A DNA stretch of 30,935 bases from a virus (IMGVR_UViG_2690316316_000011:1-30935); one strand, 5' to 3'; numbered from the stretch's first letter, positions 1-30,935 are shown. Notes: generated by a model from the sequence alone, not told the origin. Numbers and translations are program-made.

Positions 1-456
1 ATGAACAAGAAAGGAATATTTTTAATCATAGCGTTACTTATTTTTATTTTACTACTATTGCTTATATTCGCTAAGCTAAATTTTAATGTAAATACTGCCC
101 TCGCTATATTATCATTAATTTTAACAGTGCTATCAGGTACGGACTTAGTCAAAAAGTACACTACGGTCAAATCGACAAATAAAAGCCCTATAGATATGTG
201 GATGGTTTTTGGTATTGCTATCTCCGCTGTTTCTATGTATGGATTATATATAGACCCCCAATTATCCCCTTTAGAAGGTTTAACTATTTGTATAGTATCA
301 CTTATACTTTTTGTTACTGTTTTAGTTTCGGCTTTATTAAATTACAAAAAAATAAAGAAACCAGATGTTAGGGAAATAATGAAACAAAGTCATTCGGTTT
401 TTAGAGAAAACGAAGAAACCATTACTATTACAACAACCATAAAAAAAGCCCCGTAA
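1..456 (+). CDS. small integral membrane protein, unknown function
   Basis: Complete 151-aa ORF with about four hydrophobic helices (e.g. IFLIIALLIFILLLLLIF, WMVFGIAISAVSMYGLYI, LTICIVSLILFVTVLVSALL); stop codon lies in the loop of a terminator hairpin; very AT-rich with no AGTACT copies. Confidence 0.5.
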   Translation: MNKKGIFLIIALLIFILLLLLIFAKLNFNVNTALAILSLILTVLSGTDLVKKYTTVKSTNKSPIDMWMVFGIAISAVSMYGLYIDPQLSPLEGLTICIVSLILFVTVLVSALLNYKKIKKPDVREIMKQSHSVFRENEETITITTTIKKAP

Positions 457-468
457 GGGGCTTTTTTA
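441..468. terminator. bidirectional Rho-independent terminator
   Basis: AGCCCC-gtaa-GGGGCT perfect hairpin (447-462) flanked by A7 upstream and T6 downstream, between convergent ORFs 1-456 (+) and 482-1276 (-). Confidence 0.7.
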
Positions 469-481
469 TATTTCACAAGAT

Positions 482-1276
482 TCATAGAATAGGAGAGTAA
501 ATTTCCACTTCAGGATAATAAGCTCTAAGGTAATTTATAAAACCTTCATAAGCATTAAGAAGAGATATTTTATGTGAAATCAAATCTTGTTCTATTATCA
601 GTGCTTTATCGGAAGGTAGCTCATCATAATTGAAATGACAAAGAAGATTATGATTCGCACCACCAAACACCTGAATGTTTCTATTATCGGAAATCGGCAA
701 ATGTCCACATATGATATAATCAATATTTTTATACGAATCAATGAAGCTTTGGAAATGACCGTGGAGTAACTTATCATTTAACGGATAGCCCGCTGGAAAA
801 TCCCTTAAAATACTATCAAACTGATCTCCAAAAATAAGAAGATCGGTGTGAAAAGAATTAGGTAAAGTTTCAACCAATGAACGTACCCTCGCAAACGGTG
901 TAAAGTGGAAGTAAGCGTTTAAAAAGTCCACATCTGACTGTCTTTTTTTATCTGAAAATAATGTATTATCGGTTGCACTCTGTATATAAGCCTCATGTTC
1001 CCTTTTGATTTGATGCAATTTTTCCACTGTATAAGTGAATGGATCTCTATCAACAAGAATATGATCATTTGCACAAAGCAGGATAAGATTTTCATAAGAA
1101 TTGTCATTTGCTAACAGGTCATCGCCCCTTGGTCCTTTTGGGCTTTTGGCTATTACATGAGCCATTTGTCCGATGTGAACCTGCTCTTTAAAAAGAGAAG
1201 TTCGGCAAATATTACATTGCCCAGCGGATAGGCCATACAATTTTTTTATTGCTGCTGTAGTAATTGCATCACTCAT
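482..1276 (-). CDS. HNH-type nuclease domain protein
   Basis: 264-aa ORF; N-terminal zinc-finger HNH signature C-x2-C ... H ... N ... C-x2-H (CNICRTSL...HVIAKSPKGPRG...NLILLCANDH); C-terminal ~150 aa not recognised. Confidence 0.55.
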   Translation of the reverse strand: MSDAITTAAIKKLYGLSAGQCNICRTSLFKEQVHIGQMAHVIAKSPKGPRGDDLLANDNSYENLILLCANDHILVDRDPFTYTVEKLHQIKREHEAYIQSATDNTLFSDKKRQSDVDFLNAYFHFTPFARVRSLVETLPNSFHTDLLIFGDQFDSILRDFPAGYPLNDKLLHGHFQSFIDSYKNIDYIICGHLPISDNRNIQVFGGANHNLLCHFNYDELPSDKALIIEQDLISHKISLLNAYEGFINYLRAYYPEVEIYSPIL

Positions 1277-1336
1277 AAATCAAATCCTTAGATTGCTATT
1301 TTATTAACTCAAAATACATATTAAAGGAAAAATCTT

Positions 1337-1633
1337 TCAGCTTCCACCAACCATAATCAATAGCACTTGCAAAAGTTGTCCTAATGGAACTTGGATCACA
1401 ATAATTCCAAAAGCATCAAGTACTGGTACTATGATCCAGTTATAAAAAATGATGAGTGTAATCACAAAACCAAGGGCATTACGCCAGTGGAATGACACTT
1501 TTTCAATCTCTTCTTTGTTTGTTTCAATCTGCCCCTCGGAATTTGTTTTTTGTACTTCCTGCTCGACTGTCTTCTTCTTGATGAAAAAATCCATTCCCGT
1601 ATTTAATAGCTCTATAATTGTACTTATAATCAT
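1337..1633 (-). CDS. small membrane protein (possible holin-like)
   Basis: 98-aa ORF, hydrophilic N-terminus and two C-terminal hydrophobic helices (ALGFVITLIIFYNWIIVPVL, GIIVIQVPLGQLLQVLLIMV); 4-nt ATGA overlap with the upstream gene. Function is inferred only. Confidence 0.35.
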   Translation of the reverse strand: MIISTIIELLNTGMDFFIKKKTVEQEVQKTNSEGQIETNKEEIEKVSFHWRNALGFVITLIIFYNWIIVPVLDAFGIIVIQVPLGQLLQVLLIMVGGS

Positions 1634-1941
1634 TCAATAATCCCCACACAATATCCCCAAAAGTGCTTTCCCTTTACAAATAGCTTCTTGCTTTCGATTA
1701 AGTACACGTCCATTTCATCACCCTGTAGTGACCATGTGAGTACTTCACCATCTTTAAAACTTTGCTTTTTCTCGTAGCAGATATTCATAAAGCACTCAAT
1801 CTGTATATCTGCTTTCTTCAATTGCTTCTGGAACTTCTTTCCGAGAAAGCATTTATTGATTGGCATACTGTTACCATCTGGTGTAGTACCATTCAGTGTT
1901 ATCTCACTCGTAAGTTCACCATAGTGTTCTTCAAAATTCAT
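1630..1941 (-). CDS. hypothetical protein
   Basis: 103-aa ORF in an operon-like minus-strand run, translationally coupled to neighbours; no recognisable motif. Confidence 0.35.
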   Translation of the reverse strand: MNFEEHYGELTSEITLNGTTPDGNSMPINKCFLGKKFQKQLKKADIQIECFMNICYEKKQSFKDGEVLTWSLQGDEMDVYLIESKKLFVKGKHFWGYCVGIIE

Positions 1942-1942
1942 T

Positions 1943-2512
1943 TTATCCCTTTTTTATAACAAACGATCCCTGTATACCTGCAAGAACAAGTCTTGCCCCC
2001 TTCTCTGCTTCTGCATAGAAATCATAAATGATTTTACGTTTCTTACTTTCACGCAATCCAATTACTCGCTTTTCTTTCTTCTTCTGGCTGGTATCAATCA
2101 ATCGCTCTTTACCATTCTTCCCTTTAATGACCTTATAACGCCCATTTGATAGATTACGTTTCAACCCTGCAATGTTACCGAACCGATCAAGACGTGCTTT
2201 ACTCGTTGGTACAAACTTATCAATGGCCTTTTCCTGAATAAGTACGTCATATAAGTACTTCGCTTGTAGATCCTTCACGAGAATTGTACTGCGAACATCA
2301 TTACCAACTTTCTTGTACATAAAGAGAATGGAACGCTGAGTGAAAGGTACTGCTCCTTTATCGACGGCATTGTTTAAGTCCATTTGCATTTTGGCTGATA
2401 ACGCCCTTGACCTTTTGATTATTTCATTCTGAAAGTAACGTCCGAGACGTTGACCCGTTGTATTAAGATAGGTTGTAGCGTTATTCAGTCCTGTTATTCT
2501 GCCTCTGATCAT
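1943..2512 (-). CDS. hypothetical basic protein
   Basis: 189-aa ORF, Lys/Arg-rich C-terminus (KGKNGKERLIDTSQKKKEKRVIGLRESKKRK); tightly packed with flanking genes. Confidence 0.35.
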   Translation of the reverse strand: MIRGRITGLNNATTYLNTTGQRLGRYFQNEIIKRSRALSAKMQMDLNNAVDKGAVPFTQRSILFMYKKVGNDVRSTILVKDLQAKYLYDVLIQEKAIDKFVPTSKARLDRFGNIAGLKRNLSNGRYKVIKGKNGKERLIDTSQKKKEKRVIGLRESKKRKIIYDFYAEAEKGARLVLAGIQGSFVIKKG

Positions 2513-2514
2513 AT

Positions 2515-2967
2515 TTACCTCACTCCCAACATTTCAATCAAACTCTGTAGCACCCGGAATAATTCGATTCGATTCTTTGGTAATCGGGATTTGCACAAAA
2601 TGGCTTTATTAAGATTATCAGGATGTAAACCGTAATAGCTAATCAATGCAGTTTCAATTAAAGTAGCTTCGGCATCTGTCTTAAAACAGTACAGAATCCT
2701 TTTTGAGTACTCCATACCTGAATCAATCATGGCATTTACACTTTTACTGCTGCCCGTATAGTCCATCCAGTTACTTTCAGTTGATGTACTCTCAAGGTTT
2801 GAAATGTCTTTGATACCTTTATATATCTGCTTCTTCCCGAAGTAGTACTCTCCCGTTTCGGGAAATTCAATTAAGTACACAAATGAACAGTACAGACCTT
2901 CATTTACTTCCTTGACATCCCATTGTTCTGGATCGAACATCGCCCAGTTGTTATTAATTCTCATCAC
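2515..2967 (-). CDS. GIY-YIG-like endonuclease (putative homing endonuclease)
   Basis: 150-aa ORF; N-terminal 'VYLIEFPETGEYYFGKK' has GIY-(10-11 aa)-YIG spacing, followed by a conserved-looking Arg and an E..LI segment (AEATLIETALI). Confidence 0.45.
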   Translation of the reverse strand: MMRINNNWAMFDPEQWDVKEVNEGLYCSFVYLIEFPETGEYYFGKKQIYKGIKDISNLESTSTESNWMDYTGSSKSVNAMIDSGMEYSKRILYCFKTDAEATLIETALISYYGLHPDNLNKAILCKSRLPKNRIELFRVLQSLIEMLGVR

Positions 2968-3004
2968 TAAATACCCATATGTAATTTATATAGGTATTTA
3001 GTGA

Positions 3005-3448
3005 ATGGATTTAAAAAGCAGACTTAAGGAATATGAAGGTACGATTGCCTATCAGAAAAAATTGAGGTACTTCCGTAATGGAAAATTCTTCCCATACTCT
3101 GATTCATTGGGATTCAGTACTGTCGGATATGGTCATTTAATCAAACCGGGAGAAAATTTCAGTACTGGATTATCCCCGAATGAGGCAGAGACTTTACTTG
3201 ATAAAGATATTGCAGTTGCCCGGACAGGATTAAGCACATTACGTTTAGGTACTCTTCCTGCCGACATTGAGGACTATCTGATCATCATGATTTTTCAGTT
3301 AGGGGTGAATGGCGTAAGTAAATTCAGAAAACTACTGGCAGCGGCAAAGGCGGGAGATCGTGATGGTATGCGGCGTGAGTCCGTTGATTCATTATGGTAC
3401 AGACAAACGCCAAACCGGGTAAGAGATATGAATAATAAATTGAAATAA
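3005..3448 (+). CDS. endolysin, T4 lysozyme-like muramidase (GH24)
   Basis: 147-aa ORF; N-terminal catalytic Glu region (EYEGTIAYQ...VGYGH) and C-terminal 'SLWYRQTPNRVRDM' closely parallel T4 lysozyme 'SRWYNQTPNRAKRV'. Confidence 0.85.
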   Translation: MDLKSRLKEYEGTIAYQKKLRYFRNGKFFPYSDSLGFSTVGYGHLIKPGENFSTGLSPNEAETLLDKDIAVARTGLSTLRLGTLPADIEDYLIIMIFQLGVNGVSKFRKLLAAAKAGDRDGMRRESVDSLWYRQTPNRVRDMNNKLK

Positions 3449-3450
3449 CA

Positions 3451-3475
3451 AAGGGGCATTACGCCCCTTTTGTCT
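3451..3475. terminator. bidirectional intrinsic terminator
   Basis: AAGGGGC-attac-GCCCCTT perfect 7-bp stem followed by T-rich tract (ttgtcttttc); sits between convergent lysozyme and the 3459-3731 ORF, overlapping the latter's stop codon. Confidence 0.6.
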
Positions 3476-3731
3476 TTTCGAGAATTGTCAGAATACGTTC
3501 AATCTTCAAATCCAGTTGATGAATTTGATCTTCGAGATTACGTAATGTCTTCTTCATTTCATCCTGCTCTGTTTCGAGGCGGTCTATACTGCTACTGTGT
3601 AGTTGTATCTTTGCTTCAATCTGCGAAACTCGCGTGAGTAAATCTTCAGTATCAGAAGAACTGTCACGGAATATCGTATAAAGAAAACCAAGGCCAGCGA
3701 TAACAAGAGCAAAAATAGTACCGAAATCCAT
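3459..3731 (-). CDS. membrane-anchored coiled-coil protein (possible lysis-associated / spanin-like)
   Basis: 90-aa ORF; N-terminal TM helix (IFALVIAGLGFLYTIF) followed by a heptad-like coiled coil (IEAKIQLHSSSIDRLETEQDEMKKTLRNLEDQIHQLDLKIERIL). Adjacent to endolysin; function inferred. Confidence 0.35.
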   Translation of the reverse strand: MDFGTIFALVIAGLGFLYTIFRDSSSDTEDLLTRVSQIEAKIQLHSSSIDRLETEQDEMKKTLRNLEDQIHQLDLKIERILTILEKTKGA

Positions 3732-3768
3732 ACATTATGCCTTATTATTGTTATTATGAGTATTTATA

Positions 3769-4416: not shown

Positions 4417-4424
4417 AGTTATCC

Positions 4425-8312
<3,888 letters not shown>

Positions 8313-8328
<16 letters not shown>

Positions 8329-9493: not shown

Positions 9494-9494
9494 A

Positions 9495-10067
9495 GTGATA
9501 CCTCGAATATCTTCTTTCTTTATTTATTTGAAAACCTCTTTTCTTAATTTTTTTAGGAGGCTTGATTGGCAGGCCGCATCGGTTATAGTTGCTATGATTT
9601 TGTTTGGAGCACAAATAGGCTATAACACATATGATAAATGGAAGGAAAGTTCAGATAATGTTTTTAAAATGCGTGTAATATTATTAAGCGAAATAAACAA
9701 CAACCTTATGGCTCTTGCAACTGGCGGCGATGATTCTCAGGTATTAGGTACTTACGAAATTTGTATTCCTTTACCTGCCGGAGATACAGAAGCCATTAAA
9801 AGAGTAGCAACCGCCGTTTCCTATTTGCATGATGAAGTATATTTTTCACAATTAGAAAAGTTAGCATCACTTCCTAAAAAAGAAGTAGATGCGATAGTGA
9901 AAAGTTATTATTCATTATCAAGATTGCGTACCCTTTCTACGCAACTTGACTTCAATATCAACTATTCACCGTCTAAGGTAAAATTAATGAGAGATGAATA
10001 TTACAATCTTTATAGCTTAACAAGCTCTCTATCTAACTATTTGACTCATCACACTGAAAATCCCTAA
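9495..10067 (+). CDS. opposite-strand moron ORF, hypothetical membrane protein
   Basis: 190-aa ORF antisense to the tail operon, filling a 585-bp gap between tape measure and minor tail genes; N-terminal hydrophobic helix (AASVIVAMILFGAQIGY); AT-rich, no AGTACT copies. True start may be an internal Met. Confidence 0.3.
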   Translation: MIPRISSFFIYLKTSFLNFFRRLDWQAASVIVAMILFGAQIGYNTYDKWKESSDNVFKMRVILLSEINNNLMALATGGDDSQVLGTYEICIPLPAGDTEAIKRVATAVSYLHDEVYFSQLEKLASLPKKEVDAIVKSYYSLSRLRTLSTQLDFNINYSPSKVKLMRDEYYNLYSLTSSLSNYLTHHTENP

Positions 10068-10077
10068 TTTGAATTTC

Positions 10078-12297
10078 TTAAGTATTCCGTCGCTGACTGC
10101 TTCTCACGGCCTGAGTAACGCTATTAGCGTGTTTCTTCAACATCTCATTGAATTTCTTATCATCACCCGCAACGTCTCCCTGAATGATCAAGGGGGCGTT
10201 GACGGTGATATCTCCAGCGGTACTGCCGCCTTTCTCCTGAGTATCGAGGAACTTAGTCAGCTTCTTGTTAGCTTCTGGCTGTACTACACGCTCACCGGCT
10301 TTCAGTACAAAACTTTTGTTGTCCATACCAGCGGGTAATTCATCTACACCGCCGTGGAACTGCCCACTTGCAGCCCCCTTCGCAGTACTGATAATGCTCA
10401 TACCTAACGATAGTACCTGAGCGTAGTTTGCGAGGCTTGCGGGCCACGGCGTAGCAAGAGCCTGTGCTAATGCTGATTGTATTGATAGTACTGTCTGAGC
10501 AATAGTAATGCCCTTACTCAATGCAAATGCCGCCTGTGCCGCCCCTGAAGATTCACCAAACGCTTCTACCATGCCATCACTTAAGGATTGAGCCGTATCA
10601 CTGAATATAGTCAATTGTTGGTGTGCATTCAGGTTACTGATATCGATAGCCTGAGCGTTATACTTTGCCGTAATCTCTGCCTTTCGCTTTTCATAATCTT
10701 CATGACCCTTCAGTAATAAATCATTCTGCTGAAGTTCTGCATTCATGGCATCCTGATTATCTTTCAGTAATTGATCGGTATTATCATAACTTAAGGGATT
10801 ACCACCATTGATACGCTGATTTTGCTGATCTGTTAGGAATGATTTTTGAGTACTGTTCAGTACACCAGAAGAAATTAAGCTATTTGTATCTTTCAGACCC
10901 TGATTGGGATCTTGATAACCAACCATTGAATTGATTAAATCATTACGTTGTTTAGTACCAGAAGCATTTGCGGCATCGACATATTCTTTAAGTTGCTTTG
11001 GTGATATTCCAAGTACCTGAGCACTGTCCATAATCGTCTTAAGAAGGGCTTTCTGTTGCCTGTCGAACTGCTGTAGGCGTACTTTGAAACCCTTTTCCCC
11101 GACCTGAGCAAGTGCTGTTTCAAGATTACGCTGTGCCTGTAGCCTTTTTGCATCAGCCTGCTTTTGGGCTTGTTCTGCCTGTTTCCGTAGCTGATCGGCT
11201 TTCTTCTGAGCATCCTCACGTTCTTTGGCTTCGTCTTTCCAGCCACCTTGCGGAGCCGTAACAGTAGCTATGTCATTACGAAAGTTGTTAACGAGTCCTT
11301 CAAGATTGGCCTGAGCACTGGCGTACACACTCTGCTTGCCATTATCCATACTGCCAGTTTGCAAGGCTGCACCCTGATAGTTTAAAGCCCCGGCGGTGCG
11401 TAACTTTTCCCATATGTCTAAAAAGTCCTGTAATGTTCCCTTAGACGTTTTAATCTTCTCGTTCAGATCTTCAAATAGTCCTGCTTCATGGGGCTTCTGA
11501 TTGGCGGCATCCAGTACTGCATTCATTGCCCCCACGAGTGGATTCAGACCATCAGCGATAGTACCTTTGATACGGGTAGTCAGCTTATCCAGATTCTTAT
11601 CGAACTCTGCATAGTTAGCTGCTGCCTCGTTACTCACGGCGGCGTTCTGCCCCTGTATGTACGTCATTGCATCGGCTTCAGTATTGAACTGCTGAAGAGT
11701 ACTGATCATGTGGCTTGAATCACTCGCCAGTGTTTCCATGACGTTGACGATTTCGGCCTGTGACTTACCTGCATCCCGCATGGCATAAAACGTGTGGATC
11801 ACGGCCTGCATACCGCCATCTGCTTGTTTAAGGTACTTGTTATATTGCTGTAGGTTCAGCCCGTACTCTTTCAGGTCATCCGATACACCACCACCAGCAC
11901 GGAACGCATCACCAAGTTTATCGAGCGTATCCTTGTTGAAATCCCCAAACTTATCCATTTCAAGCCCAAGACCGCTAAACGCCGCCGATAGCTGCTGGAG
12001 CTGCATGACGGACAATCCAGTACTACGACTGATTTCATTCATTTCACGCACATATTCGCGGCTTGAATTGACCAGTGCAGTAAGGCCACCAATACCAATT
12101 GCAGCAGCCCCCGCTAAACCTGTCATTGCCGTACCGAAACCACCAGCAAGCCCACTAAAACTGCCAGTGAGATCTTCAATCACACCGCCAGCATTTGAAC
12201 CGAATTCTTCAAGTGATGAGGTGCCTTGTCGCAAGGCACGCTGTAAACCTGACGTATCCCCGTCAATATCAAAACGAATTCTATTATTATTTGCCAT
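10078..12297 (-). CDS. tail tape measure protein
   Basis: 739-aa ORF immediately downstream of G/GT chaperones; N-terminal Gly/Ala-rich segment (GLAGGFGTAMTGLAGAAAIGIGG), long Q/A/K-rich helical stretches. Confidence 0.8.
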   Translation of the reverse strand: MANNNRIRFDIDGDTSGLQRALRQGTSSLEEFGSNAGGVIEDLTGSFSGLAGGFGTAMTGLAGAAAIGIGGLTALVNSSREYVREMNEISRSTGLSVMQLQQLSAAFSGLGLEMDKFGDFNKDTLDKLGDAFRAGGGVSDDLKEYGLNLQQYNKYLKQADGGMQAVIHTFYAMRDAGKSQAEIVNVMETLASDSSHMISTLQQFNTEADAMTYIQGQNAAVSNEAAANYAEFDKNLDKLTTRIKGTIADGLNPLVGAMNAVLDAANQKPHEAGLFEDLNEKIKTSKGTLQDFLDIWEKLRTAGALNYQGAALQTGSMDNGKQSVYASAQANLEGLVNNFRNDIATVTAPQGGWKDEAKEREDAQKKADQLRKQAEQAQKQADAKRLQAQRNLETALAQVGEKGFKVRLQQFDRQQKALLKTIMDSAQVLGISPKQLKEYVDAANASGTKQRNDLINSMVGYQDPNQGLKDTNSLISSGVLNSTQKSFLTDQQNQRINGGNPLSYDNTDQLLKDNQDAMNAELQQNDLLLKGHEDYEKRKAEITAKYNAQAIDISNLNAHQQLTIFSDTAQSLSDGMVEAFGESSGAAQAAFALSKGITIAQTVLSIQSALAQALATPWPASLANYAQVLSLGMSIISTAKGAASGQFHGGVDELPAGMDNKSFVLKAGERVVQPEANKKLTKFLDTQEKGGSTAGDITVNAPLIIQGDVAGDDKKFNEMLKKHANSVTQAVRSSQRRNT

Positions 12298-12378
12298 TCT
12301 TATTTCCTAATACCTGATTCCTGATAGCGTCACCTATTGATTTAATATCATTGGCCTGAGCTTCTTTTTTCTTCTGTT

Positions 12379-12974: not shown

Positions 12975-12992
12975 CTGTTATCTCCATATACG

Positions 12993-13021: not shown

Positions 13022-13031
13022 ATTTATTAAA

Positions 13032-17029: not shown

Positions 17030-20806
<3,777 letters not shown>

Positions 20807-20818
20807 TTAATATCCTTA

Positions 20819-23257
<2,439 letters not shown>

Positions 23258-23395
23258 ATGTTTTGTGTACATCTAAAATGTCACAAACGATTCAAAGCAT
23301 CCGGTGCCGAAAACTCGCATTGACAATCAGGCTGACGGAGTACCTTAATTATTAGCTTCACTTAATTAACTTGATTAAAATCACTTACTTTTCAT

Positions 23396-23424
23396 TTTAC
23401 ATTATCATTATTGCAATGTAATAT
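23396..23424 (+). promoter_or_regulatory. candidate sigma70-type promoter for the DUF3800-like gene
   Basis: TTTACA (-35) - 17 nt - TAATAT (-10) about 40 nt upstream of the TTG start; weak match, by eye. Confidence 0.25.
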
Positions 23425-23465
23425 CGAAAGCACATACACATTGCCGTCATAAAGGAATATCCAAA

Positions 23466-24587
23466 TTGGTAAAAAATGTCTACTTCGACGAATCAGGGTT
23501 TACAGGTAATAACTTACTTTCAAAAGACCAGCCTTTTTTTAGTTATGCAGCAGTCATAACTGATGAAGAAGAAAGTAAACAATGTGTAGATTACATAATA
23601 CAAAAGTACTCGATTGCAGCCGGAGAGCTAAAAGGTAGCACTCTCGTTAATAGCAAGAGACTTCAACCAGCCGTAGATGAGATACTTAATCATTTCCGTG
23701 GTCGTATGCGTGTGGTTGTTAACGAAAAGAAATATGCCCTTTCAGGGAAATTCTTTGAATATATTTTCGAGCCAGTATTAGCTGCTAAAAGCTCAATATT
23801 TTACAACCTTAAATTTCACCTATTCATCTCTAATATAATGTATTTTTCTTTAATAGCTAAGGATGAGTATTCTGAACTATTGCATTCTCGATTTGAAGAT
23901 TTTTCACGAGGTAAAATATTGGTTAATAGTTTTATCGAACCAGTTATTGGTACTAAAAACTCTGAAATTATGATGGACATTCATGATTTCGCCAAACATA
24001 ACATTTCAATAATTGAAGAGGAATATGAAGGTCTTGAGGGAACTGGGTTTGATAAGTGGTTGTTAGATTTGACAACTACTTCTCTTTATAATCTCTTATG
24101 CGATATGAGTAGTAGGTTTGGTACATTGAGGGCTATATGTGACAGTTCAAAACCATTAATCACCCATCAGGAATCATTCAATGAGATGATAGGTAATGAT
24201 GAAATTGTGTTCGAGACCTACAATAATAAAAAAGTCCCGATCACATTCAAACTCTCTGAGCCGATAATCCTTTCTGATTCTAAAGTCACGCATGGTATTC
24301 AAATTGCTGATGTGATAGCTGCGGCCAGCATTTATGTGCTTAATAAGAAAAAATCCAAAGAAAGATATCACGCAAAATGGCTAACTCATTTCGAAGATGA
24401 GATTTTTTATTGGCAATGTTGTGTTGTTCCCACACCAGAAAACCTTGACCCTAAAAATGTCAACAGCTATTTGAATAGATATATATTGCAAGAAATTGCT
24501 GAACGAAGCAGAAAATCAATACCTGTTTTAGATGATATTGAAAAGGATATCATACGAATTTCCAGAACATTAGCAATGGTGCGTTGA
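23466..24587 (+). CDS. DUF3800-like protein (putative RNase H-like fold), unknown function
   Basis: 373-aa ORF beginning with a TTG codon 10 nt after an AAGGA Shine-Dalgarno; N-terminal VYFDESGFTG and C-terminal HGIQIADVIAAASIY match my recollection of the DUF3800 signature; divergent from the structural operon; AT-rich with one AGTACT copy. Confidence 0.5.
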   Translation: MVKNVYFDESGFTGNNLLSKDQPFFSYAAVITDEEESKQCVDYIIQKYSIAAGELKGSTLVNSKRLQPAVDEILNHFRGRMRVVVNEKKYALSGKFFEYIFEPVLAAKSSIFYNLKFHLFISNIMYFSLIAKDEYSELLHSRFEDFSRGKILVNSFIEPVIGTKNSEIMMDIHDFAKHNISIIEEEYEGLEGTGFDKWLLDLTTTSLYNLLCDMSSRFGTLRAICDSSKPLITHQESFNEMIGNDEIVFETYNNKKVPITFKLSEPIILSDSKVTHGIQIADVIAAASIYVLNKKKSKERYHAKWLTHFEDEIFYWQCCVVPTPENLDPKNVNSYLNRYILQEIAERSRKSIPVLDDIEKDIIRISRTLAMVR

Positions 24588-24592
24588 AGTAT

Positions 24593-24635
24593 ATATCCTC
24601 ATGCTGTGTTATTATCACCAGCGGCATGAGGATAT
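24593..24635. repeat. 12-bp perfect inverted repeat (hairpin or operator)
   Basis: ATATCCTCATGC-(19 nt)-GCATGAGGATAT between convergent DUF3800-like and lipoprotein genes; loop too long for a canonical terminator. Confidence 0.4.
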
Positions 24636-24683
24636 CATATGCAATTATTTTATCATGCCACATACACTCAATCACTTAATAAT

Positions 24684-24974
24684 TTAACTTTGATGATTTT
24701 TATTATCTATATTATTATATTTTTGAATTCTTTCCTCGCGTATTAGACATGTAGTACTGCCATCGTCCATCTGGTAGATTGGATTGTAGATGCGACCGCA
24801 ATCACTCTGGAATTGAGGCCGATAGTACTTCACCCCGTTACGTGTACCTGCGTCAAACAGTACTACAACAGCCTTGTTATCAACATTGCCGACAAAAGCG
24901 TTATCCATGAATGAGTGATGTACGTTACTACAGCCTGTTAGCAGTACTACCAACATGACGATGAGTATTTTCAT
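24684..24974 (-). CDS. small lipoprotein (candidate superinfection-exclusion protein)
   Basis: 96-aa ORF; signal peptide MKILIVMLVVLLTG followed by lipobox Cys (LTGC-SN); two further Cys in the mature part. Confidence 0.6.
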   Translation of the reverse strand: MKILIVMLVVLLTGCSNVHHSFMDNAFVGNVDNKAVVVLFDAGTRNGVKYYRPQFQSDCGRIYNPIYQMDDGSTTCLIREERIQKYNNIDNKNHQS

Positions 24975-24984
24975 TTCTATTTCC

Positions 24985-25515
24985 TTATAGTAATTTTTCG
25001 CAGTGCTCGAAGCGGATCGGCTTGTACATGCCCTGTACTGCCCAAACTCCGCATCCCTTAAGCAACTGGTGATGGTTGGTGTCCTGTACCTGTACGATCA
25101 CCTTGTCACAGCATCTATGGATGTTCTGTAGCAGTACGGGGAACATGACGCTCCCGATCAACTCATCACTGAACCTTCTATTTAGCCGTACTACCTCATA
25201 ATCGCCGTGCAGCAATTCGACCGCCGAAGTACCACGCCTCCCAACGTCATCGAGCCAGTGCAAGCCAAAGTACTTTATGTAGTCTGCCGACTCAGTGGGA
25301 AGTATTGGAGTGCTGACAGCACAGAACAGACCATTTGACCTGAACCACTCTTCTTTCCTACGTATGACGCTCATCTGTTCATGGTGTAGCTGCCGCTTCA
25401 GTACATCCCCAGCAATAACCCGGCAGCCATGTATTTCTATCTGTGGCTGGATTTCCACTCCGAGCAGTTGCCCATTGAGAGAAGTGGTCGGCACAGACCA
25501 GTACTGGATGTTCAT
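24985..25515 (-). CDS. hypothetical Cys/His-rich protein
   Basis: 176-aa ORF co-oriented with the lipoprotein gene; visibly GC-richer than surrounding DNA; no motif recognised. Confidence 0.35.
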   Translation of the reverse strand: MNIQYWSVPTTSLNGQLLGVEIQPQIEIHGCRVIAGDVLKRQLHHEQMSVIRRKEEWFRSNGLFCAVSTPILPTESADYIKYFGLHWLDDVGRRGTSAVELLHGDYEVVRLNRRFSDELIGSVMFPVLLQNIHRCCDKVIVQVQDTNHHQLLKGCGVWAVQGMYKPIRFEHCEKLL

Positions 25516-25568
25516 TTAATGACCTCATTTGACCGTAAGTCATTAATATTGATCATTTTTATAGATCA

Positions 25569-25585
25569 TTCAATGCATCATTGAA
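25569..25585. promoter_or_regulatory. palindromic operator-like site
   Basis: TTCAATG-cat-CATTGAA inverted repeat in the divergent intergenic region between 24985-25515 (-) and 25677-25985 (+). Confidence 0.3.
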
Positions 25586-25639
25586 CAGTTTTATCGATAG
25601 GTTGTGATTTACTGGATTTTTAAAGCCACATACCCAACA

Positions 25640-25655
25640 CTGTATATACATACAG
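25640..25655. promoter_or_regulatory. candidate LexA (SOS) box
   Basis: CTGTATATACATACAG fits the enterobacterial LexA consensus CTGT-N8-ACAG with AT-rich spacer; overlaps a TATATA -10-like hexamer, 22 nt upstream of the 25677 start codon. Confidence 0.5.
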
Positions 25656-25676
25656 CACAACTATGGAGAACATCAA

Positions 25677-25985
25677 ATGAGTAAGAATGGCTACGATCCA
25701 GCAATCATTCGAGGGGTTCAGACCTTCACACATTGCGAGCGTGAATTCAGGGTTTGCTACTACGGTTCAGTACTGGATAAGTTTGCATGGGGTGATCGTG
25801 TGTTCTTCCAGAATGGACAAGGGAAGTACTGGTTCGGTACAGTTCAACGTGATTGCTTCGACCTGATCATTGAGTACCCCATCGCTTCAGTACTGGAAGG
25901 GTTAACTTATCTGGTGAGGGAAGATGAAATTGCCAGGCTTCATGAAGATGGTTGGTTTTGTGGACAAGAAGAACTACCGTTTTGA
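25677..25985 (+). CDS. hypothetical protein, possibly SOS-regulated
   Basis: 102-aa ORF with GGAG Shine-Dalgarno 8 nt upstream; preceded by the LexA-box candidate; followed by an AGTACT-flanked inverted repeat. Confidence 0.4.
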   Translation: MSKNGYDPAIIRGVQTFTHCEREFRVCYYGSVLDKFAWGDRVFFQNGQGKYWFGTVQRDCFDLIIEYPIASVLEGLTYLVREDEIARLHEDGWFCGQEELPF

Positions 25986-26096
25986 GTACTACCCCCTCAC
26001 ACCAAACAAACCTACCCATTAGCAAGGGGGAGTACTTTCTCGTAGTATACAGAACGAATAAATTCTTTGTATACTGCCGTTTTATCCTAAAGCGAT

Positions 26097-26783
26097 TTGA
26101 TTATGGACGAGAATAAAAAAGAAGTTATTGAAATAAGATCAGAAGATAAGGACTTTTTTGCAGAATTTATTGATTGTGAAGGTCCAATTATCCAAGATTC
26201 AATTGATCATAAAAAAATCACCCTTGCACTTGATAAAGCCCATGACATAAGAAAGTTTGAAATAGATCTCTATTGGAAGCGTGCTACTTATTTCTTTGCT
26301 TTTTTTACGGTTGTTACTGCTGCATTCGGTTTTACATTCTCAAATTACCGCTATACCTCTCTATCCCCCGCAATTGCTATTATCGGGATGACTTTTTCAC
26401 AGTGTTTTTATCATGTTAATATTGGCAGTAAGTACTGGCAGGAAAACTGGGAGTTCATTATTGATAAAATTGAATATTATGTGACTGGCAATCTTTACAA
26501 AGTTAGTTTCTTTGAAGATCATAATACATTAAGACCATCAGTGTCTAAAATTAACATTTATCTTAGCTGCTTTATCAAATGGGTTTGGATTTGTTCTCTA
26601 TTCCTATCTATTTTTAGCATACTCTTTCCGCATCCTATTTACTCATTGGTCTATTCATTAGTTGCATTCAAGCTGTATAAGCATACAGAACAGCACTGCA
26701 AAAAAACATTCAGTGATGAGTTAACTAATGATAAAAAAATCATTAGACGATTCCATTTCCGAAATCCAACATACAAAAAATAG
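26097..26783 (+). CDS. polytopic membrane protein, unknown function
   Basis: 228-aa ORF; soluble N-terminal ~60 aa then two pairs of hydrophobic helices (YFFAFFTVVTAAFGFTF / AIAIIGMTFSQCFY; IYLSCFIKWVWICSLFLSIFSILF / IYSLVYSLVAF) and a basic C-terminus; AT-rich, one AGTACT copy. Confidence 0.4.
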   Translation: MIMDENKKEVIEIRSEDKDFFAEFIDCEGPIIQDSIDHKKITLALDKAHDIRKFEIDLYWKRATYFFAFFTVVTAAFGFTFSNYRYTSLSPAIAIIGMTFSQCFYHVNIGSKYWQENWEFIIDKIEYYVTGNLYKVSFFEDHNTLRPSVSKINIYLSCFIKWVWICSLFLSIFSILFPHPIYSLVYSLVAFKLYKHTEQHCKKTFSDELTNDKKIIRRFHFRNPTYKK

Positions 26784-26789
26784 TAAATG

Positions 26790-26806
26790 AGGGGCTATAT
26801 GCCCCT
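26790..26806. terminator. bidirectional intrinsic terminator
   Basis: AGGGGC-tatat-GCCCCT hairpin with flanking T-rich sequence between convergent genes 26097-26783 (+) and hcp (-). Confidence 0.6.
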
Positions 26807-26811
26807 TTCTA

Positions 26812-27297
26812 CTATGCTGTAGCTCGTTCATTCCACGCATCTGTATACTGGATATTACCGTCACAGTACTTCCATGTAATTCTTTCGTAGCGTAATTCTA
26901 CACGCTCCATATGATTACATTTTTCAACGGTCTTTGTATTGTACATTATCGGGGTTACGGCAACGACTTTGACGCCTTCAAGAAGCATATTGAAGTACTC
27001 TACTTCCTGGCCTGCATCATTAATCTTGTACCATTTAATTTCGACACTTTTAAGCGACTGGCCTGTAGCAACTGCTTTATAGAGATATGGCGTAGAGCTA
27101 TCAAATTCCTTTTCTAATACCATCGGTGCATGGATTCGAGTTCCAGTAATTTTACCAGTATTATTATCGGTAGGAATATGTAGACCATGACCGAAACCAA
27201 TAATTTCTACACTTCCCTCGCGATCCATTACATCGCATGACCCCTTAATTAATGCTCCACCATCATCTTTAAGCCATAAGTGTGCGGGGATTGCCAT
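26812..27297 (-). CDS. hcp: Hcp (type VI secretion system tube protein) homolog
   Basis: 161-aa ORF; MAIPAHLWLKDDGG N-terminus, IPTDNNTGKITGTRIHAP, PYLYKAVATGQSLKSVEIKWYKINDAGQEVEYF and RVELRYERITWKY blocks parallel enterobacterial and Vibrio Hcp sequences recalled from memory; AAGGAG Shine-Dalgarno 7 nt upstream. Confidence 0.8.
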   Translation of the reverse strand: MAIPAHLWLKDDGGALIKGSCDVMDREGSVEIIGFGHGLHIPTDNNTGKITGTRIHAPMVLEKEFDSSTPYLYKAVATGQSLKSVEIKWYKINDAGQEVEYFNMLLEGVKVVAVTPIMYNTKTVEKCNHMERVELRYERITWKYCDGNIQYTDAWNERATA

Positions 27298-27309
27298 TGA
27301 AAACTCCTT

Positions 27310-27666
27310 TTAATCGTAAAGCCAGCGACCAGCCTTAGCTGATTCGACAAGCATTTTGAGTGTTAATGGTTGTGGTTCAATCCATTCCCATTTATTATCT
27401 TTTGATCGTAAAAAATTCAATGGAAGTATTACTTCTTCATTGGGCCAGTACTTTCCAAATGTGAAGTTTTTCCGATCAACATTGAACTTCGTAAAGTAAT
27501 CATCAAGTATCTCTATCGCATCTTCATCTGCCCAAGGATACTTTCCTGTTGATAGGCTTGTTTCCAGCGTCAATGATGGCTTCCTGAAAAATGGAAAAAC
27601 ACGCCCATTCCAATTGTCGTTATACCAATTCATGACCTGCTGCTCTATGCTATCTGAATCGTTCAT
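27310..27666 (-). CDS. small soluble Trp-rich protein, unknown (operon partner of hcp)
   Basis: 118-aa ORF 12 nt upstream of hcp and 7 nt downstream of the 148-aa ORF. Confidence 0.4.
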   Translation of the reverse strand: MNDSDSIEQQVMNWYNDNWNGRVFPFFRKPSLTLETSLSTGKYPWADEDAIEILDDYFTKFNVDRKNFTFGKYWPNEEVILPLNFLRSKDNKWEWIEPQPLTLKMLVESAKAGRWLYD

Positions 27667-27673
27667 TCAGTAC

Positions 27674-28120
27674 CTACCATAGACGATCTGAAGGATGGGC
27701 GATTGTATTGTACTTATTGACAGCTTTGAAACTGATTATAGAAACGTCTGCTGCGAGTATAACCCAACCAACAAGAGGAATAGTCCTGCCAACGAATGTA
27801 CCTAATCGCTGTGTCATAACTCGTTTGGCATTAGGTGGAAATCCAATCCAAGTGGGCATTCGTACTGGCATCATTCGCCCTCTGAATAATTTTCTGGAAT
27901 AGATTGATGCCACGGATGTTCCGGGGGTTGCCCCTGCGAGTTTACCTGCTACTGTGACACTATTCGAACCAAGATAGATCCCTGCTACTGCGGCTATGTC
28001 TGAGATACCAAAGTGATCTAATGTTTCATCAACCATGATCCAGAAGAATAGCTCCCCTGCACTCAGATTGGACGAACCGTCATAGAAGTATGTTCCGTTA
28101 AGTTCTTCTACTGTATCCAT
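27674..28120 (-). CDS. hydrophobic glycine-zipper-like protein, unknown (first gene of hcp operon)
   Basis: 148-aa ORF with Gly/Ala-rich hydrophobic stretches (ISDIAAVAGIYLGSNSVTVAGKLAGATPG; GRTIPLVGWVILAADVSIISF). Confidence 0.4.
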   Translation of the reverse strand: MDTVEELNGTYFYDGSSNLSAGELFFWIMVDETLDHFGISDIAAVAGIYLGSNSVTVAGKLAGATPGTSVASIYSRKLFRGRMMPVRMPTWIGFPPNAKRVMTQRLGTFVGRTIPLVGWVILAADVSIISFKAVNKYNTIAHPSDRLW

Positions 28121-28267
28121 CAGTAATCCCTACTTTTGTGTAGAATTCCCCATAATACTATCAAGTTGGACATAGATGGGAAATTAAACCCCATGAAATT
28201 TCTGATTTAAGTTTAGCGGTACTTAATCCTAAGTTAAGTTGTGATAATGATCACTCTCAACCAACAG

Positions 28268-28296
28268 TTACTAATTCATCCATAAAATGGTAGAAT
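28268..28296 (+). promoter_or_regulatory. candidate sigma70-type promoter
   Basis: TTACTA (-35) - 17 nt - TAGAAT (-10), ~35 nt upstream of the 28331 start codon. Confidence 0.35.
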
Positions 28297-28330
28297 GCCC
28301 TTAGAAATCCTTAATTGAAAGTTTAAACAA

Positions 28331-29044
28331 ATGAAATTTAAAAAATATAACAATGCTTTGATTTGCACTGTTCTTGTACTCTTATGGGCAGCAATCTTGG
28401 CACTGGTTAAAGTTTTATTTTCTGGGAATAAAGATTTTGAATGGGGTAGTGTCTCTGATTGGGCATCCACATTTTGCAATGCTATAATGGCTGGAGCTGC
28501 ATTATATGCAGCTATTAATGCAAAAAATTGGTTATCAGAGAAAACACGAACATTAGGTTTGGAAAAAGCCGAATCTATACTTAATGAAATCGATACTTTT
28601 TCTTCCGCCCATAGTTCTTATATAGATCGTTTAGCTGAAGCTGAAATCTACTATCGGTCTAATATTTTTGAAAATCAAGTAGACAGGAATATAGTAATAA
28701 ATTCACTTGATGAATTACGAGTGTTAATTGAAAACAACAAACTGAGATTGCAGGATACGCATTCAAAATTTTCATCATTAAAACGTTGGGATGTCACAAT
28801 TTTAAAGGAAGAGGAAATTTATCAGCTACTTGATGTTTATCAAAGAACAATTATGTCTTTATCGAATGCGACTTTTAATCTAAGAAATGCATTATCGGAA
28901 TTCATTAATGATGAAAGGTTTTTTGCACTCTTTGGCCATCATTTCAAAGAATATTATGCAGAGGCTCTTTCGTCCTATCATCAGGGGACATGTATCCATG
29001 ATAAAATTAGGAAATATAAATTCCGAGAACTTTTTGATGTATAG
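28331..29044 (+). CDS. N-terminally membrane-anchored helical protein, unknown function
   Basis: 237-aa ORF; two N-terminal hydrophobic helices (ALICTVLVLLWAAILALVKVLF; FCNAIMAGAALYAAINA) then a charged helical domain; AT-rich with no AGTACT copies. Confidence 0.4.
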   Translation: MKFKKYNNALICTVLVLLWAAILALVKVLFSGNKDFEWGSVSDWASTFCNAIMAGAALYAAINAKNWLSEKTRTLGLEKAESILNEIDTFSSAHSSYIDRLAEAEIYYRSNIFENQVDRNIVINSLDELRVLIENNKLRLQDTHSKFSSLKRWDVTILKEEEIYQLLDVYQRTIMSLSNATFNLRNALSEFINDERFFALFGHHFKEYYAEALSSYHQGTCIHDKIRKYKFRELFDV

Positions 29045-29681
29045 TTTATCGTAGTGCATAGGAATTATGTCGATACCGCATATGGTAACAGTTTCTGATA
29101 AACTCGGGCTTCTCATCTGAGTCTTTCATTAAGCACCGTTACATTAGTTATACTGTCATAACTCACTTAAGCAATAACATCTGTTAGCCGGAGGTTGTGC
29201 GTGCGGCGGCGGGACTGGCGGGTTACTAACTAATGCCTTGATGATAGTACTGATTTAGTAGTTTACCACAGTAAGGGCTTCAACAGCCCGATAACCCCAA
29301 CAAGGGAGTTTACGACCGCGTAGGTACTCACGAAGACTTTAGGCCACAGGCCGACCCAAAAACATTTTGAGTACTTCATTTGTCAGTACTGTTACCTGTC
29401 TGAGCGAGAGCGAGTAAGGGCTTTGGCGTTCTTTCGAGTACAGCGAGAAAAACGCAAAGTTACTAACCAATACTACGAGGAGTTCACGACGAGTAGTATT
29501 CGTGACGCAAGTCACAATTTCATTGAATACTGATAGAGAAAGAAATACATGGAATGAAATGGAATGGATTTCGTATCTCTATACTTAGTTGCCGTATTGA
29601 TGGTAAAACGCAGGTTTCAGGGGCTTTTTTTCCCGTATTACGGCATGGATGTATGCCGTTATATGCCGCAATAAGGCACAA

Positions 29682-30143
29682 TTAACGCAAGCTCTTTAAG
29701 TACTCGATCATGTCATCAATAAAGTTACCTTCTTTTTGTAGTTCTAATAGCTTACCTACCTCTTTATACGTTAGCGTTCTTTGTCCATATGCTGGTGCTG
29801 GTAGTGCGTCTGGGTGCTCCATCATATACTGCTCGATTTGTTTTGCTGCATCCGTGATCGCTGCCCCGTAGTACCTGATCATACGTTCTTTTACTTGTTT
29901 CTTATTCTGACTTACTTTAATAGCATTGATAGTACTGAATAGTAAATCATTTCGTATTTCATCTTCATTGCTCAATACTGTAAACACATCGTATACACTA
30001 ATCTTATCCCTCACATTCAGTTTAGCCACTGAATCCTTCATTATGTTTTTGATATCTTCACATGGGATATCTTTATATAGCTTGCACTGACTAATTAGTG
30101 CTTTTATTTTTCTGTTATCAAAACTTGAATAAGTTTTTGCCAT
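29682..30143 (-). CDS. hypothetical protein
   Basis: 153-aa ORF; no motif recognised. Confidence 0.35.
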   Translation of the reverse strand: MAKTYSSFDNRKIKALISQCKLYKDIPCEDIKNIMKDSVAKLNVRDKISVYDVFTVLSNEDEIRNDLLFSTINAIKVSQNKKQVKERMIRYYGAAITDAAKQIEQYMMEHPDALPAPAYGQRTLTYKEVGKLLELQKEGNFIDDMIEYLKSLR

Positions 30144-30208
30144 GATAAATACTCCTAAGATAGATGTTAATTTTGGCCTGTAGTATTTCCAGTACTCAGG
30201 CCTTTTTA

Positions 30209-30709
30209 TTATTGTGATTTGTGTAATAGTACCGCACTAAGTTTCGGATAAGATTTATACTTCTGCGATAGCTTATAGATGTATGACTTACGTCCAGCAA
30301 CATAAGCTGCATGAGCTTCTTCTACCGTTTGGTATGTTCCAAATTTATGTACTTTCTTATCAAATGTAGCTTGTGCTTGATAGCCCTTATGATTAACGAC
30401 TACACCAGTTGATAAAGATGTTGGTACTTCCCGAAATAATTGATTGATTTCTCTCGGTACAAAGATACAGTTACTTGGGCTGTACTCACTCCCTCCTAAT
30501 ATGTCTTTATCCAAGTGCCAATCATCAACGACATTATCAATATACCAGTAATAAAAGTTACTAAAGAGATACCAATCATCGCAGATAGTAACAGTACTGT
30601 AATTGATGTTATTACGTACTCTTGAGTGAAAATTATTCCATACTAGTTGTGCTTCTTTTATACGTGGTAGTGCCTGACCTTTTAGGTCATTTCTTTTTTC
30701 CTTTTCCAT
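30209..30709 (-). CDS. HNH homing endonuclease with C-terminal AP2-like DNA-binding domain
   Basis: 166-aa ORF; HNH-like H..D......N....N segment (WHLDKDILGGSEYSPSNCIFVPREINQ) and AP2-like C-terminus (GVVVNHKGYQAQATFDKKVHKFGTYQTVEEAHAAYVAGRK). Confidence 0.55.
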   Translation of the reverse strand: MEKEKRNDLKGQALPRIKEAQLVWNNFHSRVRNNINYSTVTICDDWYLFSNFYYWYIDNVVDDWHLDKDILGGSEYSPSNCIFVPREINQLFREVPTSLSTGVVVNHKGYQAQATFDKKVHKFGTYQTVEEAHAAYVAGRKSYIYKLSQKYKSYPKLSAVLLHKSQ

Positions 30710-30785
30710 TTTTCATCCTTGAAAATAAGTACTTCACCCTGAAGTACTGCCAGTACTTTTCTAAAGTGAAAGTACCAAACCCTTA

Positions 30786-30935
30786 CTTGCTACCTAAAAT
30801 CGCATACTGATGTATCAGATACTGAATGGCTGAACTAATCGTAGTAGCCTTACCACATTCTATAAGTGATTTTAGTATTTCTTCTTGTGTAGGATTTAAT
30901 CTCACTCCAACACTAATCGTTTTCTTTTCTTTCAT
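30786..30935 (-). CDS. small DNA-binding protein (ribbon-helix-helix or HTH-like)
   Basis: 49-aa ORF read by hand from the reverse complement (MKEKKTISVGVRLNPTQEEILKSLIECGKATTISSAIQYLIHQYAILGSK); absent from the supplied track because it is below 60 aa. Begins at the window edge. Confidence 0.35.

Follow-up and report, generated by a model that had tools for sequence, protein, structure and literature searches.

Phage genomes are expected to lose the short palindromes that serve as restriction-type sites, and the question raised by the viral sequence IMGVR_UViG_2690316316_000011:1-30935 (30,935 nucleotides, here called the window) is why one such palindrome, AGTACT, has been driven up about 9-fold in it. 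The window covers most of an approximately 35-kb prophage-like element of Escherichia coli, which lies between mipA and yeaG and has a large serine recombinase at its yeaG end. Its gene content includes a lambda-type terminase and portal, a protease-capsid fusion, siphovirus tail genes, a lysis cassette and a GIY-YIG nuclease, and its 236-amino-acid methyltransferase is located directly outside the window. No close relative of the element was found among cultured phages. A first-pass annotation had estimated 85-90 copies of AGTACT against about 10 expected. Exact counting gave 89 against 9.9 expected from base composition (A 0.28, T 0.32, G 0.18, C 0.21), and AGTACT ranks first among all 4096 hexamers by the ratio of observed to expected. 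The next two hexamers, GTACTG and CAGTAC, are both extensions of it. The tetramer GTAC, described earlier as about 2-fold enriched, occurs 270 times against 110 expected (2.46x). Frequent extended forms had also been reported, which holds for the octamer CAGTACTG (17 copies against 0.4 expected) but was overstated for the decamer CCAGTACTGG, which has merely 2 copies.

The enrichment is highly significant and acts on DNA rather than on protein. Genic copies of AGTACT are spread over the three reading frames (30/25/25), another 9 lie in 2,068 non-coding bases, and non-coding DNA has a higher density (4.35 per kb) than coding DNA (2.8 per kb). The Ser-Thr copies (AGT-ACT) at 3116 and 3161 lie in the lysozyme gene (3005-3448, plus strand) and the Val-Leu copy (GTA-CTT) at 19948 lies in the portal gene (18774-20291, minus strand), as annotated. 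Because sites are found in all frames and in intergenic DNA, the excess must act at the DNA level, and the earlier view that no single codon-pair effect explains it is correct. Genome-wide dispersal of this kind is characteristic of highly iterated palindromes, as is an abundance many-fold above both composition and codon-preserving expectations. Shuffling synonymous codons within each gene yielded 20.9±4.1 copies (maximum 36 in 1000 shuffles) against the 82 observed in coding DNA (z=14.8), so the ratio under a codon-preserving null is not near 1. Shuffling codon order yielded 10.3±3.1. These two shuffles rule out codon usage as the source of the excess. Among the peptide contexts that permit AGTACT, it is realised in 32 of 77 Ser-Thr, 25 of 41 Lys/Gln/Glu-Tyr-x and 25 of 58 x-Val-Leu contexts, for which codon usage predicts 7.2, 4.5 and 5.5, respectively; this is 42-61% of the permissive contexts against about 10% expected. 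The permissive dipeptides Ser-Thr and Val-Leu are themselves about 1.4-1.5x enriched. Selection is strong enough to bend both codon choice and dipeptide content.

The excess might in principle be a by-product of codon usage, amino-acid composition or the avoidance of other palindromes. The Markov expectation for AGTACT in the window rises from 7.3 (order 1) and 20.6 (order 2) to 43.6 (order 3) and 82 (order 4), which speaks for a by-product, but the motif itself inflates these high-order expectations. A shuffle constrained by avoidance matters here because 26 of the 64 palindromic hexamers are absent from the window. When synonymous shuffling was barred from creating GCGC, CTAG or any other purged palindrome, it produced 21.3±4.1 copies against 82, and a side effect of palindrome avoidance is thereby ruled out. 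The 26 missing hexamers and GCGC behave as avoided words, and AGTACT does not. Given these shuffles and the higher density between genes, an origin as a by-product is barely credible.

The enrichment is restricted to vertically inherited phage DNA. Pooled E. coli flanks hold 3 AGTACT in 45.6 kb against 12.1 expected, and this depletion rules out an equal enrichment in the host. The density is about 2.9 sites per kb in the phage and about 0.07 per kb in the host chromosome. E. coli 14EC007 carries a 96%-identical remnant of the element at the same site, with 40 AGTACT in 16 kb against 2 in 31 kb of flanking chromosome, and the two IS3 elements inside this remnant have none. Related loci numbered 92 (58 viral contigs, 7 named prophages and 27 right-end loci), with prophages of eight enterobacterial genera among them. 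Around the terminase gene, AGTACT is enriched 2.2-13.5x in 58 of 58 viral contigs that encode a relative of the terminase (62-96% identity). It is also enriched in seven prophages, from Cedecea, Pluralibacter, Phytobacter, Citrobacter, Pseudescherichia, Kluyvera and Enterobacter, and it is in excess in 26 of the 27 right-end loci (range 1.1-11.5x). GTAC is enriched 1.6-3.7x in all 92.

Individual sites are also held in place. In an alignment of the window with 53 relatives (66-82% nucleotide identity), AGTACT was intact at the same position in 44.8% of cases (487 of 1086 comparisons at 73 sites). The corresponding share was 16.7% among hexamers matched in composition, 17.7% among those lying 6-17 bp from a site and 19.5% among hexamers overall. 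Retention is therefore 2.7x that of matched hexamers. The protected footprint is the six bases of AGTACT themselves, and nearly all of the conserved positions are intragenic. Purifying selection keeps these sites, as in other highly iterated palindromes, and this positional conservation agrees with the positive function to which the annotation had pointed.

What is selected is broader than the hexamer. In counts pooled over 1.43 Mb of family sequence, enrichment falls with the number of mismatches to CAGTACTG, from 31x (none) to 5.7x (one), 2.0x (two), 1.2x (three) and 1.0x beyond, and the costliest mismatches are those within the central GTAC. The annotation treated the hexamer as a sharply specific unit, but the signal is hierarchical and nearly additive: GTAC gives 2.5x, followed by A/T at ±1 and then C/G at ±2. 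A at -1 and T at +1 of GTAC are nearly independent (median odds ratio 1.25). Non-palindromic half-site forms show no strand bias (1975 vs 1953), such as a polar signal would have. No single-mismatch neighbour of CAGTACTG is clearly depleted, the lowest being 0.7x on 7 copies. Positions outside the octamer hold at most 0.07 bit each, and with almost no information in the flanks, an extended hidden motif or a repeat family around AGTACT is rejected. In lineage L096, AGTACT has fallen to background (4 copies, 1.1x), and AGTAC followed by A, C or G (AGTACV/BGTACT) is at 3-8x; therefore the selected unit is GTAC with a preference for a 5' A on either strand. AGTACT is an economical overlap of two such AGTAC-type units. 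Across the family GGTACC is at 0.08x and CGTACG at 0.09x, with neither present in the window. Because these two palindromes are nearly absent whereas GGTACT is at 4x, ordinary restriction avoidance must be superimposed on the enrichment.

The SlmA-binding consensus of E. coli is the 12-bp sequence GTGAGTACTCAC, in which conserved GT...AC flanks surround a central AGTACT. SlmA sites were rejected as an explanation: G at -1 is the least favoured base (0.58x), there is no G/T preference at -3/-2, and GAGTACTG is enriched 3.4x against 31x for CAGTACTG.

The same signature is found in an unrelated group of phages. A scan of viral contigs for two copies of CAGTACTG within 30 bp listed family members and at least three contigs of about 350 kb without protein similarity to the family. 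One of these is Klebsiella phage RaK2 (346 kb, 100% identity), and the remaining two (one of about 359 kb) we take to be 121Q and GAP32; the loci retrieved from these two gave counts like those of RaK2. RaK2 contains 937 AGTACT against 116.5 expected (8.0x) and 247 CAGTACTG against 2.9 expected, an 85-fold excess of the octamer. GTAC is at 2.51x, and the series by distance from CAGTACTG is 85, 7.4, 1.8, 1.16 and 1. In its genes 811 AGTACT were counted against 250±12 after synonymous shuffling. Comparison of all family proteins with RaK2 by tblastn and blastp found only a lysozyme (54% identity), a tail-fibre fragment and one small protein, which occurs in five family loci; no common reader gene was found by these searches. 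In the seven other phages sampled for comparison AGTACT is below expectation: lambda (5 observed against 11.9 expected), RB49 (0 against 15.9), T5 (1 against 8.2), FelixO1 (2 against 8.0), rV5 (0 against 7.2), PA5oct of Pseudomonas (1 against 10) and Atu_ph07 of Agrobacterium (1 against 10). The first five, all enteric, total 8 against 51, and together with the depleted host flanks they bear out the claim that the enrichment is specific to certain phages. PA5oct and Atu_ph07, which infect other host families and have been called distantly related to RaK2, both lack the signature.

The excess of GTAC and AGTACT is always accompanied by the absence of GCGC. The window has 0 GCGC against 48 expected, and 35 would arise by synonymous shuffling; for RaK2 the count is 0 against 215, and shuffling would yield 138. 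GCGC is likewise 0 in nearly every family locus (L012-L104). It is 1.6x enriched in the host flanks and is retained by lambda (1.16x), RB49 (1.56x), T5 (0.5x), FelixO1 (0.4x) and rV5 (0.5x), as well as by PA5oct (1.4x) and Atu_ph07 (1.2x). A nuclease acting on GCGC, either phage-encoded for the breakdown of host DNA or host-encoded, is a possible cause.

Loss of one word and gain of the other could be explained together by mutation, through biased repair or through a deamination of methylated cytosines on the two strands that turns GCGC into GTAC. The numbers allow it: the excess of GTAC in the window is about 160, and a host-like 31-kb ancestor would hold about 165 GCGC. In addition, the transition neighbours CAGCACTG and CAGTGCTG are at 3-4x against about 1x for transversion neighbours, and RaK2 encodes a C5 methyltransferase. 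However, the intermediates GTGC and GCAC are just 1.1x, the first deamination would remove the methylation substrate, and the frequency of A at -1 is 0.53 for the GTAC of the family but 0.23 for the GCGC of E. coli. A conversion sink requires a depleted neighbour word, and none is clearly depleted. The sites are held in position 2.7x over matched controls, and the signature occurs in two phage groups: RaK2 encodes a DNA polymerase of its own, and in the prophage replication genes are not recognisable. The phage-specific mutational signature suggested in the annotation is thus largely refuted, and a mutational origin is very unlikely.

Enrichment, its graded and symmetric landscape and its convergence in two phage groups are direct observations. 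Our preferred reading of them, to which we assign a probability of roughly 0.45, is that AGTACT is the peak of a positively selected, orientation-independent density mark on phage DNA with GTAC as its core and CAGTACTG as its optimum. A temperate siphophage lineage would be under positive selection for the highest possible density of the motif on double-stranded DNA in either orientation, and the contrast in density would separate phage from host DNA for a sequence-reading protein. We infer that a protein reads the motif and that density matters, rather than single sites, as for Chi, uptake sequences and GATC. Because unrelated jumbo phages of the same host family match the siphophages without a common plausible reader gene, the selective agent may be supplied by, or aimed against, the enterobacterial cell, as with a host nuclease or defence that the motif would attenuate or evade. 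Alternatively, each phage group might have its own reader of the motif, the two proteins being non-homologous.

Several points weigh against a density mark read by a protein. No reader protein was identified among the candidates examined. The enterobacterial jumbo phages are probably one clade, so that a host-linked pressure is not separated from a single acquisition by that clade. Because the comparison enteric phages avoid AGTACT, both groups would need protection from AGTACT-type restriction, which this reading does not supply. The notion that more sites are better is drawn from how fully the permissive contexts are used. Furthermore, the 53 relatives are not phylogenetically independent, which makes the conservation ratio indicative rather than a formal test.

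Protection is supplied by a second explanation, in which AGTACT is a methylation-linked iterated palindrome, as proposed for HIP1. The phage methyltransferase would modify (A)GTAC(T), and sites would accumulate because they protect the genome or time packaging or early transcription. The avoidance of AGTACT by the comparison phages speaks for such a need, and the 236-amino-acid enzyme beside the window (L006:11312-12022, left of window position 1) is a candidate. It has an NPPF motif, falls in PHROG 3820 ('DNA methyltransferase') and gives weak PADLOC matches to Type II MTase and mad2. When viral contigs were scanned for this enzyme, it was found at 27 right-end loci, of which 9 are on terminase-set contigs, a divergent one included, and tblastn found homologues in 289 phage records. 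RaK2 encodes one C5 and one Dam-type methyltransferase, and its DNA is methylated and refractory to many enzymes according to its authors, with data not shown (PMC3622015). Against this, neither RaK2 methyltransferase is related to the family enzyme, and the best Pfam match of the latter, the MTS domain PF05175, is below the Pfam cut-off, so the protein may not act on DNA. RB49-like phages have homologues that are 57-58% identical to the family enzyme and lie between baseplate genes 8 and 9, yet RB49 (homologue at 74465-75304, 58% identity) has 0 AGTACT where about 16 are expected, and L096 keeps the enzyme although its palindrome is down to 1.1x; both weaken the methyltransferase as the AGTACT reader. 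Methylation offers no obvious reason why half-sites should be enriched in a graded way or why a high density should apparently be of benefit. A GATC-type target of the methyltransferase is possible, since TGATCA ranks second among enriched palindromes in the window (1.5x) as well as in RB49 (2.0x). On balance we regard methylation as a doubtful explanation of the motif.

Another candidate sequence-specific enzyme, judged from its predicted domain, is the GIY-YIG nuclease of 150 amino acids (2515..2967, minus strand; PF19835, E=3e-15). It is present in 27 of 27 right-end loci with a median identity of 45%. Among cultured phages only distant, homing-endonuclease-like matches were found, and no relative with a solved structure was found. 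The nuclease and the methyltransferase, which would be the candidate genes for a resident Type II restriction-modification system of ScaI/Eco255I specificity, are both conserved and lie five genes apart, and carriage of restriction-modification genes does not predict AGTACT enrichment.

AGTACT might instead be an operator, bound at promoters by a dimeric repressor or activator, with the intragenic copies weak or incidental. RaK2 provides the best case. Between 220 and 250 kb (L230) it has about 20 sigma-70-type early promoters of the form AGTAC-TTGACA-N9-CCAGTAC-TGTATAAT, and 19 pairs of AGTACT sites exactly 20 bp apart overlap their -35 and extended -10 elements. Several of its apparent terminators are 20-bp perfect palindromes centred on AGTACT. 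Its densest region (52-70 sites per 10 kb, chiefly small hypothetical open reading frames) matches the annotated terminal repeat of the related phage Muenster. The word 'promoter' does not occur in the RaK2 genome paper. The promoter layout fits a bound regulator; it also fits a pressure to place the motif wherever the sequence permits, because the motif shares a T with TTGACA and a TG with the extended -10 of the promoter, and motif-carrying terminator centres fit this pressure too. The siphophage family has no such arrangement (0 of TTGAC-N10-14-AGTACTG), about 90% of its sites are intragenic, with nearly all of the conserved positions among them, and the motif holds almost no information past 8 bp, which is unlike typical operators.

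Intergenic clusters of the window could still be operators. One is formed by the sites at 29370 and 29385, and the other is a trio at 30728, 30743 and 30752 (30728..30757). The trio lies between a 166-amino-acid gene (30209-30709), whose product matches the C-terminal part of phage HNH endonucleases, and a gene for a 50-amino-acid protein (30783-30935, minus strand) that was read by eye as a ribbon-helix-helix DNA binder (MKEKKTISVGVRLNPTQEEILKSLIECGKATTISSAIQYLIHQYAILGSK) and is present in most relatives with a retrieved early region. Two sites of the trio form the arms of a 9-bp hairpin, AGTACTTCAGGGTGAAGTACT, in the stretch 30728-30748. In most relatives a hairpin also follows the 50-amino-acid gene, directly upstream of the ribosome-binding site of the next gene, with a kept AGGA-type loop and a varying stem. 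Since relatives keep the hairpin with other stems, the hairpin is the conserved feature and AGTACT just fills its stem in some members. The ribbon-helix-helix-like protein was accordingly rejected as the reader, most relatives having no AGTACT there. The product of the 237-amino-acid gene on the opposite strand was rejected as a repressor, being a membrane and coiled-coil protein. An operator function as the cause of the enrichment therefore seems quite improbable.

The likeness between the two phage groups invites two further explanations. In one, the element would copy a RaK2-like signature (no GCGC, many CAGTACTG) to survive or exploit the nucleases, transcription or replication of jumbo phages, and the reader would be jumbo-encoded. 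The two groups agree quantitatively in the twin signature and in the distance series, and gene flow between them is indicated by the lysozyme and the neighbouring small gene. The approximately 35-kb element (window 23223-30935 and loci L006 and L010 included) has no recognisable genes for replication, CI/Cro or recombination. On the other hand, the element itself encodes a full set of virion and lysis proteins, the early-promoter architecture of RaK2 is absent from the family, co-infection or induction has no support, and common adaptation to one host factor covers the same data. Such mimicry has a poor chance of being right. In the other explanation, the siphophages and the RaK2/121Q/GAP32 jumbo phages would share an identity system, in which a dense GTAC mark with CAGTACTG as its optimum and the deletion of GCGC let a machinery tell phage from host DNA. 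A GCGC-directed nuclease would destroy the GCGC-rich host chromosome and a GTAC-reading factor would recruit or protect phage DNA; in a variant, the small element would mimic the jumbo-phage signature to survive or exploit jumbo phages. We consider a shared system of this kind unlikely.

Our preferred reading, a density mark, has partial counterparts in known systems. HIP1 (GCGATCGC) is also a short palindrome that is many-fold over-represented through coding and non-coding DNA, maintained by selection and suspected of a link to a methyltransferase (PMC5861425). HIP1 is 8 bp long, GC-rich and over-represented 15-300x in cyanobacterial chromosomes (PMC5861425), whereas the AGTACT motif has a 4-bp core with graded flanks, reaches 8-9x (31-85x for the octamer), belongs to phage genomes with hosts that are themselves depleted of the motif and invariably goes together with a complete loss of GCGC. 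Chi (GCTGGTGG), DNA uptake sequences and FtsK KOPS are dispersed, density-dependent short words that separate classes of DNA. These words are asymmetric, have a strand polarity and label DNA of the cell itself, in contrast to AGTACT/CAGTACTG, which is symmetric, shows no strand bias and labels phage DNA in a host that is depleted of it. Restriction-site avoidance of the ScaI/Eco255I type concerns the same word, and the window avoids most other palindromes just as the five other enteric phages avoid AGTACT; the 9-fold excess of AGTACT is the opposite, and L096 appears to have added palindrome avoidance to a kept half-site enrichment. No description of AGTACT or GTAC over-representation or GCGC absence of this kind in phages was found in the literature searched.

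Two unrelated phage groups of medically important hosts are affected, those of E. coli and Klebsiella, and of Cronobacter if the contig of about 359 kb is GAP32. If a reader exists, the motif would represent a new mode of phage DNA recognition, protection or regulation and a new host-range determinant for jumbo phages under development for therapy. The absence of GCGC offers a second, independently testable handle, and the pair of motifs provides a cheap metagenome signature for finding members of both groups.

Along the window, AGTACT (strandless) starts in the first 10 kb at 1419, 1739, 2254, 2706, 2844, 3116, 3161, 3871, 4191, 4538, 4880, 5212, 5554, 5669, 5977, 6260, 7206, 7400, 7588, 7695, 8012, 8103, 8280, 8547, 8894 and 9440. 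Between 10 and 20 kb it starts at 10384, 10487, 10849, 11513, 11698, 12019, 12584, 12606, 13428, 13579, 14802, 15106, 15355, 15516, 15927, 16168, 16497, 16806, 16914, 16937, 17831, 18066, 18536, 18630, 19108, 19358 and 19948, and between 20 and 26 kb at 20282, 20693, 21140, 21602, 21935, 22097, 22350, 22680, 22912, 22932, 23605, 24753, 24824, 24859, 24943, 25269, 25500, 25769, 25825, 25889 and 25985. The remaining starts are at 26031, 26431, 26865, 26994, 27447, 29246, 29370, 29385, 29699, 29931, 30191, 30593, 30728, 30743 and 30752. The positional periodicity that the annotation proposed to look for has a counterpart in the window, where 18 of 88 nearest-neighbour intervals measure 300-349 bp against 5 expected (0 of 20,000 simulations reached 18, for a bin picked after the data were seen). 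One such run, 3871-4191-4538-4880-5212-5554, spans three genes. The peak is missing around the terminase gene of the relatives, where spacing is roughly exponential, and in RaK2, and a general periodic spacing is thus rejected.

By density per gene, the densest stretch comprises small early genes (24684..25985). It includes genes at 24684-24974 (4 AGTACT, 13.8 per kb) and 25677-25985 (3 AGTACT, 9.7 per kb), and between them a relative of EAL-domain c-di-GMP phosphodiesterases (24985-25515, 2 AGTACT), which has the full domain in relatives. Homologous early-gene clusters across the relatives have AGTACT at 17-30x and GTAC at about 4x. A non-coding region of 637 bases between convergent genes (29045-29681) has AGTACT at 29246, 29370 and 29385 (29246..29390). 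It also contains the inverted repeats GTGACTTGCGTCAC and AATACTAC...GTAGTATT and the repeated sequence GTTAGTAAC, and a cos site, a non-coding RNA or an origin could lie there.

Other stretches are free of sites. The accessory genes at the prophage end (1..1276) encode a 151-amino-acid membrane protein and a 264-amino-acid HNH-effector-like protein and have 0 sites in 1,251 coding bases. The N-terminus of the latter (482-1276) matches PADLOC HNH effectors of CBASS/SAVED systems (SAVED-HNH) and PDC-M68A. Its gene is in none of the relatives, that of the membrane protein gave one weak match, and the stretch reads as recently acquired DNA that has yet to gain AGTACT. The 237-amino-acid gene (28331..29044, plus strand, opposite to its neighbours), whose product has two predicted membrane helices and a coiled coil, is site-free in the window, and its family has AGTACT at 2.9x and GTAC at 1.24x (44 copies, 28 loci). 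A 190-amino-acid insert in the tail module (9495..10067, plus strand, also opposite) has 0 sites and a GC content of 0.34 and occurs in 0-1 relatives. The site-free accessory stretch at 27674-28120 is rare or weakly marked in relatives. Other accessory genes of the window hold one or two AGTACT each. Together with the 264-amino-acid gene, a DUF3800 protein (23466-24587), an 8xMP membrane protein (26097-26783) and an Hcp/DUF1493/DUF8209 trio (26812-28120) make up accessory cargo that looks like defence or competition genes.

Words other than GCGC are also purged in places. CTAG occurs once in the window against 110 expected and is about 0 in one subset of relatives that includes the window; TGCA is about 0 in a second, non-overlapping subset, and TCGA is low in still other relatives. 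As E. coli and lambda are nearly free of CTAG too, the CTAG pattern may track host adaptation. FelixO1 has 0 GATC against 89 expected (L234, 20001-45000), in agreement with the counter-selection of GATC that has reportedly been described in enterobacterial phages. Chi is present in the window at 11891, 12140 and 21084, all on the minus strand (3 against 0.2 expected per strand). Reasoned from gene order (terminase end versus early-gene end), in a cos-cut genome this orientation would act on RecBCD that enters at the early-gene end. Neither a Gam gene nor a recombinase gene was recognised in the element. RaK2 has Chi in a ratio of 15 to 3 by orientation, with 0.8 expected.

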